The position numbers and the translations under genes are program-made. DNA of 64,000 nt from an uncultured Clostridiaceae bacterium (GTDB lineage Bacteria; Bacillota; Clostridia; TANB77; CAG-508): assembly GCA_946493085.1 (NCBI GenBank), contig CAMMAC010000004.1, forward strand, positions 47-64,046, in the 5' to 3' direction. Numbering within the stretch: position 1 is the stretch's first letter; each line of letters opens with the position of its first letter. Below, piece by piece: positions 8,584 through 62,395 of this stretch. Below the pieces are notes generated by a model. It searched no databases. It was not told the origin of the DNA and saw nothing but the letters and a program-made list of their open reading frames with translations.

Positions 8584-9531
8584 ATGGAAAATATAATAGG
8601 AAAAACACCGATGATACAAATAAAATACAAATATCAAGGAAATCAAAGATATATCTATGCCAAGTTAGAAGCTTTTAATATGACAGGAAGTATTAAAGAT
8701 AGGATGGCAAGTTATATTATAGAAAGAGCCAAACAAAGAAAAGAATTGAAGCCAGGGCAAGCAATCGTGGAGGCAACTAGTGGAAATACAGGTATCTCTT
8801 TAGCAGCCATAGGAGCAAGAGAAAAGCATCCCGTGTACATATTCATGCCAGATTGGGTAAGTGAAGAACGTGTAAAAATCATGGAAAACTATGGAGCCAC
8901 AGTAAAACTATATTCCGCACAGCAAGGAGGATTTAGACGTTGTATTCAAGAGGCACAATACTACGCTAGTAAAATAAACGGATTCTATGTAAATCAATTT
9001 TCTAACCGAGATAATATGATGGCACACTACCAAACAACAGGATTAGAAATACTAGAACAAGTGCATGAGCCAATAGGAGGATTTGTGTCTGGTATTGGTA
9101 CAGGAGGCACCCTAATGGGAGTAGGAAGAAGACTAAAAAAACAAGACCCAAGCATAGTGCTTGCTGCCATAGAGCCAGATAAAATGCCATTATTGTCTAA
9201 AAATAGAGCAATAGGGCAGCATAAAATAGAAGGCATTGGAGACGATTTTATACCAGAAATAGTAGATAGAAATATGATAGATACAGTGATTGTCATTAAT
9301 GACGAAGATGCAGTGAATATGGCAAGATTGCTTGCTAAAAAATTAGGCTTGGGCGTAGGTATCTCTTCAGGAGCCAATTTTTTAGGAGCAGTTATCTTAA
9401 GAGAAAAAATAGATTTGCCAGTAGTAACCGTATTCCCAGACGATAATAAAAAATACTTATCCACAGACTTAGCAAAAAATGTGGATAACAGCGACAACTT
9501 GATATCCAATCACATAGAATTTGCAATTTAG
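8584..9531 (+). CDS. cysK: cysteine synthase A (O-acetylserine sulfhydrylase)
   Basis: PLP lysine motif TGSIKDR, SGNTG loop, 315 aa. Confidence 0.9.
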   Translation: MENIIGKTPMIQIKYKYQGNQRYIYAKLEAFNMTGSIKDRMASYIIERAKQRKELKPGQAIVEATSGNTGISLAAIGAREKHPVYIFMPDWVSEERVKIMENYGATVKLYSAQQGGFRRCIQEAQYYASKINGFYVNQFSNRDNMMAHYQTTGLEILEQVHEPIGGFVSGIGTGGTLMGVGRRLKKQDPSIVLAAIEPDKMPLLSKNRAIGQHKIEGIGDDFIPEIVDRNMIDTVIVINDEDAVNMARLLAKKLGLGVGISSGANFLGAVILREKIDLPVVTVFPDDNKKYLSTDLAKNVDNSDNLISNHIEFAI

Positions 9532-9549
9532 GGACGTTTCTAAAATTGC
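9523..9549. repeat. REP-like palindrome, GCAATTT-arm variant
   Basis: GCAATTTAGGGACGTTTCTAAAATTGC. It contains the TAG stop and the last two codons (A-I) of cysK. Confidence 0.85.
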
Positions 9550-9551
9550 AT

Positions 9552-9578
9552 GAACTTTAGGGACGTTCTTTAAAGTTC
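9552..9578. repeat. REP-like palindrome, GAACTTT-arm variant
   Basis: GAACTTTAGGGACGTTCTTTAAAGTTC, 2 nt after the previous copy (tandem pair). Confidence 0.85.
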
Positions 9579-9692
9579 ATCGCAATTTAACGATATTGTA
9601 GAATAAAAATAAATAAAAAGAAACATATTATACAAAAAAGCCTTATGGCAGGAATAAATCCTGCCATAAGGCTTGCATTTCATAAATAAATA

Positions 9693-59486: not shown

Positions 59487-59628
59487 GGGCTTTTCCCTTT
59501 GATGTAATGCCAAAAGGGGTAGACCTGTTTGACAGATATTCACATTCATAAAATGTTAATAAAATTTATACTTGGTTCTTAAGAAAACTGTGCTATACTA
59601 GAAAATGTCTAAGAAAGGGGCAAAAGAA

Positions 59629-60336
59629 ATGTACCGTATTTTAATATGTGATGATGATAAAGAAATTGTAAAAGCAATTGAAATTTATTTGAGTAGAGAA
59701 GGATATGAAATAGAAAAAGCTTATAATGGAAAGCAAGCGATGCAAATTATTAAAGAAAAAGAAATTCATTTGCTAATACTGGATATTATGATGCCGGAAA
59801 TGGATGGTATGCAAGTAGCCAAAGAGGTAAGAAAAGAGAAGGGAATTCCTATTATTATGCTTTCTGCAAAATCAGAAGATTATGATAAAATAGAAGGCTT
59901 AAATACAGGAGCAGATGATTATGTTACAAAACCTTTTAATCCACTGGAGTTAATTGCAAGAGTGAATTCCCAAATTAGAAGGTACACTTCCTTGGGTTCT
60001 TTAAGTAAAAAGGGAGAAGAACAAGAATATATTTACAAAAGTGGACAGTTAGTAGTAGATGACAGCACAAAACAAGTAACAGTAGAGGGAAAAGAAGTAA
60101 AGCTAACCCCTACAGAGTATAATATTCTAAAGTTCTTATTAAAAAACAAAGGAAAAGTATATTCAATAGAACAAATTTATGAAAATGTATGGGAAGACGA
60201 AGCTTATGGAGCCGAGAATTTAATTGCTGTACATATAAGGCACATTCGAGAAAAAATAGAAATTAACCCAAAAGAGCCAAAATATCTAAAAGTCATTTGG
60301 GGAATTGGATATAAAATAGAAAAAATAGAAGAATAG
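59629..60336 (+). CDS. OmpR-family response regulator
   Basis: Motifs ILICDDD, LLILDIMMPEMDG, SAKSE and a winged helix (VHIRHIREKI...IWGIGYK). The start was taken at MYRIL, after AAAGGGG. Confidence 0.9.
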   Translation: MYRILICDDDKEIVKAIEIYLSREGYEIEKAYNGKQAMQIIKEKEIHLLILDIMMPEMDGMQVAKEVRKEKGIPIIMLSAKSEDYDKIEGLNTGADDYVTKPFNPLELIARVNSQIRRYTSLGSLSKKGEEQEYIYKSGQLVVDDSTKQVTVEGKEVKLTPTEYNILKFLLKNKGKVYSIEQIYENVWEDEAYGAENLIAVHIRHIREKIEINPKEPKYLKVIWGIGYKIEKIEE

Positions 60337-60350
60337 AGAAAGGAGAAAAC

Positions 60351-62360
60351 GTGGAAAAATTAAAACAATCTGCTGGTTTAAAAGTATTATGCTATGTATT
60401 AGCACCTATCTTATTTTTAATATTATTGCTTAGTAGTGTTTATTTATCTTTTCAAAATGAAAATACTTATGATATGACAGTAAATGATTACTATCAAACT
60501 ACTAATTTTGCAGATAATTACTATGGAAGAATCCGCAGCATTTATTATAGCCTAGAGAACATATATGGAGATATTCCTTTTCAAGTGAGTGATACGAGTT
60601 ATTCTTTAATACAAGATGGAGAGGAAGAAATTTATTACCAATCACCAGATTACTATAGTGGATTTTATCAATATTTTCGTTTTATTATTGTAGATAGACA
60701 AAACCAAATGTTATTTACCAATATAAAAACGGATGATTATGCACAAGAAATAGAAAATATAAAACAAGGAAAATACTACTGGTATTATGAAGGTGAGACT
60801 ATACAAACCGACATAGAAAAAATTAACGAATATAATATACGTTATGATTATGGATTAGACCAATTAGAGCAATTAAAGCAATTGGGAGTAGAATTCTACA
60901 TTGATTTTGACGAAGAACAGGTAGAAGTAGGAAATGGTTACTATTTAGAAAAAACACTTTATGACACCATGATTGGACTAAAAGAGGTTCCAATGTATGC
61001 TATACCAATTACAAGTGTATTACTTATCTTAATTGTTACGTACTTAATTTGGTCTATAGGTCATAAAAAAGGAGTAGAAGGAATTTATTTAAATTCCTTA
61101 GATAAAATTTCTTATGAATTAGTATGTATCATTGCATTTTTCCTTTTAGGAATAGTAATGGTAGTGGCCAATGCAGTGACAAGTACAAGTTTAAATATGG
61201 TATTTTTATCGCTTAGTATTATTAGCTATTTTGTTGGTTATGCCATCTTAGCAACTTTAGCAACTACCACGATAAAAAGATTAAAAGCGAAAACACTATT
61301 TAGAGAATTATGGATTGCCAAAATTTATCGCTGGATAAAAAGAAATATGAAAAACCTTATTTTCTCTAATACTTCTATCATGAGCAAGGTAGCCATTGTT
61401 TATGTGGGAATTATTTTAATTAGTTTCCTTATCGTCCTATTCTTCCATGATGGATTCTGGATAATATTGTTACCAGTTTTTTGGGGATTTTGTTTTTATA
61501 AAATTGCCCAATATATGAAACAAATAAAGGTAATAGAGCAAGCACTAAAAGATATTTATGAAGGAAAAGAAGAAGTTGTTCTGGATACTCAAAAATTAGA
61601 TAAAGAATTCAAACAGATGGCAACTTATGTGAATGATATTGCAAAAGGTTTTTCAAGTGCAGTAGAAAAAAGTTTGAAAAGTGAAAGAATGAAAACAGAA
61701 TTAATTACCAATGTATCTCATGATATCAAAACACCACTGACATCTATTATTAACTACGTAGACTTGCTAAAAAAAGAAGAAATGCCAAGTGAAAAAGCAA
61801 AAGAATATCTAGAAGTATTAGATAATAAATCACAAAGATTAAAAAGGTTAACAGAGGATTTGGTAGAAGCCTCTAAAGCATCCTCTGGCAATATAAAATT
61901 GAACATGGAAATCTTAGACGTAAAAGAACTAATGAAACAAGTATCTGGCGAATTTGAAGATAAATTAGAAGAAAAACACCTAGAGCTAAATACTTATATG
62001 CCAAAAGAAGATTGTTTAATTAAAGCAGATAGCAGATATCTATACCGTGTATTAGAAAATTTATATGGAAATATTGTAAAATACGCATTAGAATCTTCCA
62101 GAGTTTATATTGATGTATTTTTAGTAGAGGGAAAAGTACAAATACAAATGAAGAACATTTCCAAAGAAAAGTTAAATATATCAGCAGAAGAACTAAAGCA
62201 AAGATTTGTAAGAGGTGAAGCTTCTAGAAATACAGAAGGAAGCGGTCTTGGACTTTCTATTGCAGAAAGCTTAACCAACCTACAAGGAGGAAGGTTTGAA
62301 ATCTATTTAGATGGAGATTTATTCAAAGTTATTATAGAATTTGAAAGACAGAAAAAATAA
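60351..62360 (+). CDS. sensor histidine kinase (two TM regions, large extracytoplasmic domain)
   Basis: GTG start after AAAGGAG. HisKA motif NVSHDIKTPLTSI. HATPase motifs NLYGNIVKYA and GSGLGLSIAES. Confidence 0.9.
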   Translation: MEKLKQSAGLKVLCYVLAPILFLILLLSSVYLSFQNENTYDMTVNDYYQTTNFADNYYGRIRSIYYSLENIYGDIPFQVSDTSYSLIQDGEEEIYYQSPDYYSGFYQYFRFIIVDRQNQMLFTNIKTDDYAQEIENIKQGKYYWYYEGETIQTDIEKINEYNIRYDYGLDQLEQLKQLGVEFYIDFDEEQVEVGNGYYLEKTLYDTMIGLKEVPMYAIPITSVLLILIVTYLIWSIGHKKGVEGIYLNSLDKISYELVCIIAFFLLGIVMVVANAVTSTSLNMVFLSLSIISYFVGYAILATLATTTIKRLKAKTLFRELWIAKIYRWIKRNMKNLIFSNTSIMSKVAIVYVGIILISFLIVLFFHDGFWIILLPVFWGFCFYKIAQYMKQIKVIEQALKDIYEGKEEVVLDTQKLDKEFKQMATYVNDIAKGFSSAVEKSLKSERMKTELITNVSHDIKTPLTSIINYVDLLKKEEMPSEKAKEYLEVLDNKSQRLKRLTEDLVEASKASSGNIKLNMEILDVKELMKQVSGEFEDKLEEKHLELNTYMPKEDCLIKADSRYLYRVLENLYGNIVKYALESSRVYIDVFLVEGKVQIQMKNISKEKLNISAEELKQRFVRGEASRNTEGSGLGLSIAESLTNLQGGRFEIYLDGDLFKVIIEFERQKK

Positions 62361-62395
62361 ACTTTGAACTTTAGGGACGTTCCTTAAAGTTCAAA
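62360..62395. repeat. extended REP-like palindrome
   Basis: AACTTTGAACTTTAGGGACGTTCCTTAAAGTTCAAA. It begins within or at the TAA stop of the kinase and has the same extended form as 16947..16988. Confidence 0.85.

Follow-up and report, generated by a model that had tools for sequence, protein, structure and literature searches.

Repetitive extragenic palindromes (REPs) and bacterial interspersed mosaic elements (BIMEs) of E. coli and Pseudomonas form 'REPtrons' together with the enzyme TnpAREP (Nunvar 2010, Ton-Hoang 2012, PMC3733652). Here we describe a 29-nt imperfect palindrome dispersed in eleven copies over a 64,000-nt stretch of contig CAMMAC010000004.1 from an uncultured Clostridiaceae bacterium (hereafter the window, always at its full length). 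It very probably belongs to a REP family of low-GC gut Clostridia, whose hairpins would be the substrates of a Y1 HUH enzyme resembling TnpAREP and tyrosine transposases associated with REPs (RAYTs), encoded elsewhere in the genome. Like the REPtrons, this family consists of short imperfect palindromes occurring roughly once per 6 kb, downstream of open reading frames (ORFs) between co-directional or convergent genes and often in inverted pairs, with inverted flanks around a Y1 HUH gene whose product has a 4ER8-like fold, and with a supply of TAG stops. In contrast to the REPtrons, it has a Firmicute host (uncultured gut Clostridia, 25-32% GC), no GTAG/CGTC foot tag, an AT-rich stem with the apical TTTAGGGAYRTTCYTTAAA as conserved core, stops in all three frames (TGAAC type), and an associated enzyme that is about 100 aa longer, carries a putative C-terminal helix-turn-helix (HTH) and lies below the NCBIfam RAYT cutoff.

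The enzyme resembles the Group 1 RAYTs (PMC5581495), which correspond to subclass 2.1 of TnpAY1 (PMC6006769) and to the TIRYTs (Di Nocera 2013), in being a long Y1 protein with a putative C-terminal HTH and a Y---NP signature, and in being encoded by a gene that appears to be single-copy; Group 1 has also been recorded in Clostridia. Previously, clostridial RAYTs were assigned to Group 1 with only low-abundance flanking repeats (Bertels et al. 2017, PMC5581495), no REP-like sequences were found for the corresponding subclass 2.1 of long proteins with a C-terminal HTH (Quentin et al. 2018, PMC6006769), and a later preprint regarded Group 1 RAYTs as domesticated single-copy genes (bioRxiv 10.1101/2021.07.10.451892). 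Both of these surveys were large and covered Clostridia, and neither reported REPs beside RAYTs of the HTH-bearing group. In the present case, an abundant REP family flanks the gene, and the likeness to Group 1, to which the enzyme may belong, is one of length, HTH and host. A G-rich sequence ahead of the gene, TGGGGG(C/A)AAAA, is reminiscent of GGGGWSAS, the consensus of the TIRYT inverted repeats.

REP doublet-forming hairpins (REPINs) of Pseudomonas fluorescens and Neisseria (Bertels & Rainey 2011, PMC3116915) share with our family the inverted doublets within about 130 nt in one fixed arrangement, the dominance of one master sequence and a RAYT gene that appears to be single-copy, whereas here the doublet spacers are unconserved (except for three at locus L042) and about half of the copies are singlets. 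The ends of IS200/IS605 elements and of their miniature derivatives (PATEs) also have subterminal hairpins that a Y1 HUH transposase recognises as single-stranded DNA, as is proposed for the present family, and the TnpA proteins of IS608 and ISDra2 are the next-best structural matches to the enzyme described below. In contrast to those multi-copy elements, the gene found here appears to be single-copy in a fixed context, with reverse-complementary left and right hairpins and no TnpB.

The location of REPs downstream of ORFs, their inverted dimers and their donation of TAG stops to ORFs have already been reported (Di Nocera 2013, PMC3733652), and two published REP superfamilies carry a GTAG or CGTC tag (PMC3733652). 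Neither Clostridia nor Firmicutes are mentioned in the main text of Di Nocera et al. 2013 (PMC3733652), Table S1 of Quentin et al. 2018 contains no REPs from these bacteria (PMC6006769), and no description of REPs in Clostridia was found in the literature searched; a full-text search for the element sequence returned chance primer matches only. What is new is the host clade, the absence of the GTAG/CGTC tag and the HTH-bearing type of transposase; stop supply by REPs is already published. REP-RAYT studies have been almost entirely Proteobacterial, and the clostridial family widens both the host and the sequence range, while the HTH-bearing transposase group gains a candidate substrate testable in vitro. 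A further-reaching proposal, which we regard as doubtful, is that no abundant REP population had before been linked to the HTH-bearing RAYTs of Group 1 / subclass 2.1, and that this is also the first such population in Firmicutes, with the host having co-opted a portable gene-end module (all-frame stops, hairpin, often a T-run) and with copies marking the borders of gained or lost segments. If true, work on Group 1-linked REPs would reveal the function of a large group of orphan RAYTs.

Repeat unit and family in gut Clostridia

The window has a G+C content of about 31% and a positive GC skew throughout, and the gene names given in a first-pass annotation of this DNA agree with Pfam matches. 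The palindrome motif of that annotation, TTTAGGGAYRTTYYTTAAA, was scanned over the window with up to 3 mismatches allowed, using dinucleotide-preserving shuffles as the null. It was detected 11 times, at the annotated positions, against a shuffle mean of 0.89 (largest shuffle 3), which is a 12-fold excess over chance, with ten matches on the plus strand and one on the minus strand (at 15102). An alignment of the window copies revealed a 29-nt imperfect palindrome, TG(AAC/CAA)TTTAGGGAYRTTCYTTAAA(GTT/TTG)CA, with a stem of 13-14 bp, a 3-nt loop and an invariant core in a near-perfect 14-3-14 arrangement. One G.T pair is constant in the unit and a second one is present in the copies having TCTTTAAA. 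The annotated consensus hairpin was correct in its 3-nt loop, but its 12-bp stem is too short and its single G.U pair does not apply to the TCTTTAAA copies. The two outer arm types of the window (TGAAC/GTTCA and TGCAA/TTGCA), the second of which had also been recognised before, are each self-complementary. In size and hairpin the unit falls within the range of REPs (20-40 bp imperfect palindromes), and its occurrence is likewise REP-like, with 11 dispersed copies in 64 kb, mostly intergenic and downstream of ORFs.

A covariance model (R1) built from 41 distinct copies of the wider family identified exactly 10 intact copies in the window (40-51 bits, E <= 3e-7) and told the two orientations apart by about 23 bits. 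The total for the window is 10 intact copies, one decayed copy at the end of spoIIE, and arm remnants. Hairpins are formed by ten of the eleven copies, with energies of -10.6 to -23.6 kcal/mol and z-scores of -3.3 to -7.4; the spoIIE copy, in which the right arm mismatches the left, showed no fold (-2.4 kcal/mol, z +0.4; 11.8 bits with R1). The half-arm TGAACTTTAG, the extended arms at 16947-16987 and 62363-62395, and the presence of both orientations (one minus-oriented copy, 15097-15125) were all borne out. Rfam 15 at the gathering threshold produced zero matches in the window.

An exact-match scan with one genome per species detected at least 111 loci (L001-L111), about 28 of which are lone matches in unrelated phyla with non-complementary arms; these were treated as chance and left out of the statistics. 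The remaining loci come from gut metagenome-assembled genomes (MAGs) of 'uncultured Clostridia / Clostridium sp.' with 25-32% G+C, many of them with several copies per 8 kb, and in nearly all exact matches from Clostridia the arms, which vary in sequence, are complementary. The family set analysed below comprises 139 copies among the matches listed (window plus L001-L111) with up to 2 mismatches to the core motif and complementary arms. These represent 41 distinct 29-mers, with a single master sequence shared by 50 of the 139 copies and found in several species. Additional arm types occur in the larger sample (TGAAA/TTTCA, GGGAT/ATCCC, GTCCT/AGGAC) and are changes of the compensatory kind. Over the 41 distinct sequences, 96% of the stem cells are paired and the three outer pairs vary on both sides; several Watson-Crick combinations occur at stem pairs 3, 4 and 5, which are paired in 40-41 of the 41 sequences, and the observed covariation was reached in 0 of 500 shuffles. 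Pair 10/20 is always G.T, although the search motif and the arm filter partly fix the pairing and the G.T features. The GTAG/CGTC foot tag is absent, the element starting with TGAAC, TGCAA, TGAAA or GGGAT, and CGTC is found only at the apex of the minus orientation, where it is gone in the CAT and TGT loop variants.

Neighbouring copies are arranged in one fixed geometry: adjacent pairs less than 200 nt apart include 25 (+,-), 0 (-,+) and 12 tandem cases. Pairs with gaps below 200 nt contain 70 of the 139 copies, and the inverted doublets within about 130 nt have the spacing of REPINs. The 15 nt on either side of 138 copies showed no conserved target motif, just T-richness on the 3' side.

A Y1 transposase gene beside the repeats and turnover between relatives

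In relatives of the window species, the repeats adjoin a transposase gene. At locus L007 a 259-aa ORF (1761-2540) located between copies scores 44.5 bits against the Pfam model for IS200-like transposases, Y1_Tnp (PF01797; cutoff 23), and has 'REP-associated tyrosine transposase' as its top NCBIfam model. Two plus copies precede this gene, which ends inside a minus copy (NAI-TAA). Repeats adjoin the transposase gene in L007, L038, L042, L114, L126, L129 and L132, and both a plus copy upstream and a minus copy downstream were seen in L007, L038, L042, L114 and L126. In L132, where the contig ends at the gene, there is an upstream copy only, and in L129 the downstream copy lies just past the stop, with the sole upstream match about 1.9 kb away. 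Each flank in L126 is a composite of about 105 nt (two copies plus spacer), and the two flanks are mutually reverse complementary. Copies flanking the gene in relatives are identical to window copies. In L117, where the enzyme belongs to a more distant lineage (51% identity), the flanking palindrome is a different one, TGAAATTTAGGGACGCTTGAAAAATTTCA, indicating that the repeat changes together with the enzyme. The C-terminus and stop of the transposase itself come from the downstream REP, and its terminal residues follow the arm type of that copy (..HEL in P0007, P0010, P0016 and P0018; ..NAI in P0001).

The transposase is about 255 aa long and its protein family has 845 members at E < 1e-5. 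All 42 homologs aligned match PF01797 and have an invariant HUH motif (H60-A-H62) and invariant Y120-IHN-N124-P125; Y---NP is the signature of class 2 (TnpAREP) enzymes (Quentin et al. 2018, PMC6006769). The alignment and an AlphaFold model (predicted local distance difference test score 87.5) point to a conserved C-terminal helical domain/HTH, for which Pfam matches are weak (Sigma70_r4 in 13, HTH_23 in 3, HTH_28 in 2 and Bac_DnaA_C in 0 of the 42). A Foldseek search of PDB with the model ranked 4ER8 first (E 1.7e-6, target TM 0.68, 150 columns), with the transposases of IS608 and ISDra2 below it at E >= 1.8e-4, and 4ER8 was also the sole match of a sequence profile (E 0.059). This entry is E. 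coli TnpAREP bound to a REP hairpin, and the predicted fold is nearer to TnpAREP than to IS200/IS605 TnpA. Each transposase protein has one fixed chromosomal context per lineage across independent assemblies, and no TnpB gene was seen at the transposase loci. The role of a RAYT-type substrate, one of several functions proposed for the palindrome in the first-pass annotation, is favoured by the identical copies flanking a Y1 HUH gene in relatives and by TnpAREP as the top structural match. We suggest that the REPs are single-strand hairpin substrates of the enzyme, whose gene would lie elsewhere in the genome, and that they are propagated or maintained by it. By analogy with IS200/IS605 and E. 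coli TnpAREP, the enzyme would recognise the hairpin as single-stranded DNA, with the constant G.T mismatch marking the strand.

A very unlikely alternative is that the repeats are non-mobile double-stranded sites for a dimeric protein, either a nucleoid-associated one or the Y1 protein itself, acting through its HTH as a domesticated regulator. The near-perfect 14-3-14 palindrome with its invariant core and the conserved C-terminal HTH of the associated protein agree with such sites, and RAYTs of this general type have been regarded as domesticated single-copy genes (bioRxiv 10.1101/2021.07.10.451892). However, the outer arms vary freely while remaining complementary, which argues for selection on a hairpin and not on a fixed duplex sequence, and the constant G.T asymmetry (partly fixed by the search motif) defines a strand. 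Moreover, all 42 homologs keep the catalytic HUH and Tyr residues, and copies are gained and lost between close relatives.

The closest relative among the matches listed is MAG E0_DM__bin141 (L006 and L089), with 85-90% nucleotide identity. At the ends of cysK, metK, a giant gene and a gene for a G5/3D-domain protein, copies were gained or lost or had a different frame read through them, and a copy was kept at the same site in the window and the relative at nrdG (L006) and at the G5/3D and AI-2E transporter genes (L089). L089 has an extra minus copy beyond the terminator of the G5/3D gene, and a related 21-kb region (L120) has no copies. L008 carries a copy at the end of the same histidine-kinase gene as the last window copy, with 72% nucleotide identity.

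Three segments of 2.5-3.9 kb in the window are absent from L006 (9552-13331, 14446-16950 and 23155-27005), each starting at or beside a REP copy; 14446-16950, with a DUF308 gene, a response regulator and a kinase, is bounded by a copy on either side. Recombination may be concentrated at REPs, or the REPs may merely occupy the same permissive sites. The position of these segments, and the bracketing of some single genes by (+,-) copies, would also be expected if the repeats were miniature inverted-repeat transposable elements of a DDE-type insertion sequence, or attC-like sites marking gene cassettes. We consider this highly improbable, because no target-site duplications were seen, no integrase or DDE transposase is linked, the flanked gene encodes a Y1 HUH enzyme, the neighbours are housekeeping genes, and orientations are mixed at distances of 200-3000 nt. 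In that range, 11 pairs are (+,-), 8 are (-,+) and 8 have the same orientation, and the bracketing of single-gene cassettes was found to be unsupported on this ground.

Several results weigh against the interpretation of the repeats as RAYT-linked REPs. The L007 protein reaches 66.4 bits with the NCBIfam RAYT model NF047646, below its cutoff of 80. The RAYT gene anticipated in the annotation was found in relatives, and neither the gene nor a relic of it was found in the window (tblastn best E 0.79). The transposase of the window species was also not retrieved by end extension (exact-protein look-ups) or through shared-sample homologs, where contigs reached by extension stop near the window start and no homolog sample matched; the link between repeat and enzyme is through relatives with identical repeats. 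Only 4 of the 10 intact window copies have sequences seen twice, and the local copy population may be old or inactive. No clean filled versus empty site was observed in comparison with L006 or L089, all polymorphic sites differing otherwise too (indels, gene content), which leaves the insertion event, cleavage site and target sequence undefined. Finally, the doublet spacers are unconserved (median identity 0.59 versus 0.60 in shuffled AT-rich DNA), so the doublet is not established as a moving or replicating unit. The exception is three L042 doublets with a spacer identity of 0.77-0.80 (shuffle maximum 0.76). Apart from L042, a REPIN unit with a conserved spacer was rejected on this basis, and the pairs are best called BIME-like or REPIN-like, not REPINs.

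Other observations concern the surroundings of the transposase gene. A TGGGGG(C/A)AAAAT(T)T motif is located 25-40 nt upstream of the RAYT start in L007, L038, L042, L114 and L117, between the REP and the ribosome-binding site, and no inverted partner of TGGGGG(C/A)AAAA was seen downstream in the five lineages. Transposase contigs often end within about 100 nt of the gene, at the flanking REPs (L129, L131, L132), and for many homologs the only known contigs measure 0.9-2 kb. Metagenome assemblies seem to be interrupted by the repeats, and the transposase gene probably tends to drop out of binned genomes in this way; gene callers, ortholog comparisons and binning are affected for such organisms. 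In one assembly (L124), which continues where others end, a transposase gene of the IS110 family (394-1581) was found just upstream of the first gene of the window.

Gene ends, stop codons and transcripts

Sense copies between co-directional genes are nearer to the stop than to the next start in 45 of 46 cases (P = 1.3e-12), the median distance being 0.5 nt to the upstream stop and 100 nt to the following start. Antisense copies represent the far member of the doublet beside the ribosome-binding site, and their median distances are 75.5 nt (stop) and 23.5 nt (following start). Two of the 139 copies are inside ORFs and 8 are between divergent starts. The bias to gene 3' ends is strong for sense copies; the earlier statement that no copy is purely upstream of a gene does not hold for the family, given the position of the antisense doublet members. 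In the window, three copies (14447, 15097 and 34727) are also located 18-64 nt before the next start codon, and the minus copy 15097 is of the family type found just ahead of downstream genes.

Eight window genes receive their stop codon from a copy, an extension or a remnant, and three more stop 0-13 nt before a copy. The TGAAC-type 29-mer contains stops in three frames in either orientation (as written, TGA at 1, TAG at 8-10 and TAA at 21-23): frame 1 opens with TGA, frame 2 reads GAA CTT TAG and frame 3 AAC TTT AGG GAC GTT CCT TAA. The TGCAA-type unit has stops in two of the three frames, and together these properties account for the high frequency of repeat-supplied stops. Across the family, the stop lies inside the element in 35 of 83 cases with a co-oriented gene to the left, always at the predicted offsets (-2, -9, -22; TAG 21, TAA 8, TGA 6), and within 12 nt of it in a further 27. 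These data confirm the proposed donation of stop codons.

The donation of C-terminal residues, also proposed in the annotation, was seen at some genes and not at others. The CysK-like protein of the window ends in ..ISNHIEFAI* and that of L006 in ..ISNHVQFRDVL*, the same element being read in another frame after a 7-nt indel. Its 120 closest homologs keep a different end (..ISN[HQK][IV][EKQ]L[IL]xYEV[IV]), from which it follows that about 7 residues of native tail were cut off and replaced. The giant ORF ends in DNVN* in the window, where a copy is missing, and in DNAI* inside a copy in L089. The repeats rewrite the last residues and stops of housekeeping proteins, with differences between close relatives. 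An ortholog without the palindrome that ends in the same residues, which the annotation had named as evidence against element-driven ends, was found for metK: in L120 (78% MetK identity, no copy in 21 kb) MetK ends in ..WEKIIKL-TAA, sharing the last two residues with MetK of L006, which bears the repeat (..IIKL-TAG). In the window, MetK has the end ..IIEL-TAG, a variant also present among the homologs, most of which (120 compared) end in II[KE][LIM]. As read from these sequences, the element at metK has replaced codons and stop, leaving the kind of residues unchanged. The metK case is what would be expected if the likeness between gene ends were driven by coding sequence, with no element involved. 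For the family as a whole this possibility was refuted and its probability is negligible, as the similarity reaches at least 20 nt past the stop, some copies are clear of ORFs or reversed, the CysK-like tail has been replaced, and the motif is 12-fold above chance; it holds just for the last two MetK residues.

The stop codons inside the elements agree with the earlier suggestion of insertion at or over stops. A target preference does not follow, as tolerance plus selection fits equally well, and insertion into the last codons and later loss of a native stop are expected to give an identical pattern. A copy in or after the last codons would cost at most 0-7 terminal residues, each frame ending within seven codons, while the other free space in compact genomes would be promoters and ribosome-binding sites only. 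With such cheap sites at gene ends and little other neutral space, surviving copies would pile up at stops and often become the stop. The accumulation at stops can then be attributed to tolerance, and a preference for targets would be unnecessary.

The annotation had also noted that most copies lack a U-tract. In the window, none of the 10 intact copies is followed by a T-run (5 or more T within the following 8 nt), the copies do not qualify as intrinsic terminators (stem plus U-tract), and no REP copy was called in a terminator scan of 54000-64000. The window copies are placed between the stop and a canonical terminator distinct from them (9638-9674, near 23170-23200, 57356-57390, 62414-62444) or in probable operons (three copies), and for this reason they are most likely transcribed. 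In the family, a T-run follows 55 of 138 copies (controls 18-25), and locus-specific stem extensions of 4-10 bp, typically made up of a left-hand A-run and a right-hand T-run, were found in 22 of 138 (shuffle mean 3.5), for example in L002, L004, L012, L026, L069, L083, L088, L094 and L102. This terminator-like subset, which has no member in the window, seems to consist of palindromes grown outward. The terminator at 57356-57390 (+), AGCTTTAGGTTTATCCTAAAGTT followed by T7, has REP-like arms (R1 13.3 bits), and its sequence suggests that it may be a REP derivative converted to a terminator.

The hairpins in 3' untranslated or intercistronic RNA probably block 3' exonucleases, and the copies followed by a T-run, which are never those of the window, probably act as terminators. 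A ribosome-stalling effect was reportedly described for E. coli REPs by Liang, Rudd and Deutscher in 2015. Such RNA functions could even be the reason for the existence of the family if the repeats were host-selected RNA 3'-end elements (terminators without U-tract or mRNA stabilisers) that became similar through RNA selection. Compatible with this origin are the close position of sense copies to stops, the G.U pairs of the sense orientation, which is about 4 kcal/mol more stable than the antisense one, and the excess of T-runs and stem extensions in the family. Nevertheless, we consider it unlikely. The same 29-mer, including the loop, occurs at unrelated genes of different species, which is not expected from independent selection; copies flank the RAYT-like gene in all lineages examined; and antisense copies stand ahead of genes. 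In the window, the missing T-runs, the three copies in probable operons, the canonical terminators after several copies and the lack of Rfam matches also speak against it. With the repeats understood as REPs, their effects on RNA would be side products or later co-option.

Individual copies and other features of the window

Table 1. Copies and remnants of the repeat in the window, with the gene ends that they supply
Feature	Position	Strand	Evidence	Gene end supplied
REP copy, TGCAA/TTGCA arms, one bulge	9522..9550	+	R1 43.3 bits; fold; sequence	cysK-like, AI-TAG, stop from copy
REP copy, TGAAC/GTTCA, in tandem directly against 9522..9550	9551..9579	+	R1 48.4 bits	
Probable remnant of minus-type TGCAA arm, CGCAATTTAACG	9581..9592	+	sequence reading only; weak	
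Half-arm remnant TGAACTTTAG	14436..14445	+	sequence; L006 has full copy there	metK, EL-TAG, stop from half-arm remnant
REP copy, TGCAA type	14447..14475	+	R1 42.6 bits; -11.7 kcal/mol	
Sole minus-oriented REP copy	15097..15125	-	R1 49.0 bits on -, 27.4 on +	
REP master copy 16953-16981, arms lengthened by duplicated GAACTTT	16947..16987	+	R1 50.7 bits; inverted repeat; -23.6 kcal/mol	kinase C-terminal ORF, TGA from left arm extension; MATE-like gene (minus strand), KL-TGA, element 16953's own TGA on the other strand
REP copy, TGCAA type, holding nrdG TAG	23105..23133	+	R1 47.9 bits; same site in L006	nrdG, ..ELAI*, AI-TAG, stop from copy
Decayed REP copy, left arm TGAAC, right arm TTGTA	29735..29763	+	1 mismatch to core; R1 11.8 bits	spoIIE, ..NEL*, EL-TAG, stop from decayed copy
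REP copy, initial TGA is the stop of ORF 33494-34729	34727..34755	+	R1 49.0 bits	ORF 33494-34729, TGA, first three bases of copy
REP copy, TGCAA type, touching TAA of G5/3D-domain gene	57317..57345	+	R1 42.6 bits	
REP copy inside AI-2E transporter gene end, third frame	59458..59486	+	R1 40.4 bits; kept in L089	AI-2E transporter, NNRDVP-TAA (TAA 59478-59480), copy in third frame
REP master copy, slightly longer stem	62363..62395 (29-mer 62365-62393)	+	R1 50.7 bits; inverted repeat	

The first copy holds the cysK-like TAG at 9529-9531 (the ORF ends at 9531) and encodes the final ..AI*. Together with the second copy, which is missing at the orthologous site of L006, it folds at -21.6 kcal/mol. 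The copy at 14447 is located 1 nt past the metK stop and 64 nt ahead of the next start codon. The minus-oriented copy lies 13 nt past the stop of the DUF308 gene and 27 nt ahead of the response-regulator start codon, and its fold is -18.1 kcal/mol as transcribed versus -22.3 for the complement. The element at 16947..16987 is common to two convergent genes, the kinase ORF and the minus-strand MATE-like gene, and the copy at 34727 ends 18 nt before the acpS start, touching its ribosome-binding site. The copy at the G5/3D-domain gene is followed by a canonical hairpin with a T-run, and the last copy starts 5 nt past the TAA of the histidine kinase, between convergent genes.

The kinase gene upstream of the element at 16947..16987 is split into a 266-aa HAMP/HisKA ORF (15835-16635, +) and a 109-aa HATPase_c ORF (16619-16948, +) in overlapping frames. 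As an independent assembly (L112) shows the same 266-aa kinase call, this frameshift is probably real (a pseudogene or recoding). The giant ORF (37338-54389, +) is a single frame of 5683 aa with an internal tandem period of about 819 nt and evenly spaced shadow ORFs on the minus strand. Three paralogous ORFs without a Pfam match (10513-11553, 23448-24185 and 29961-31667, +) share a pilin-like N-terminus, ..GITLIALVVTIIVLIILAGVSI... N-termini similar to those of the GITLIALVVTIIVLIILAGVSI ORFs are also present in L012, L085 and L090, and two of the three window ORFs are located in the segments absent from L006.

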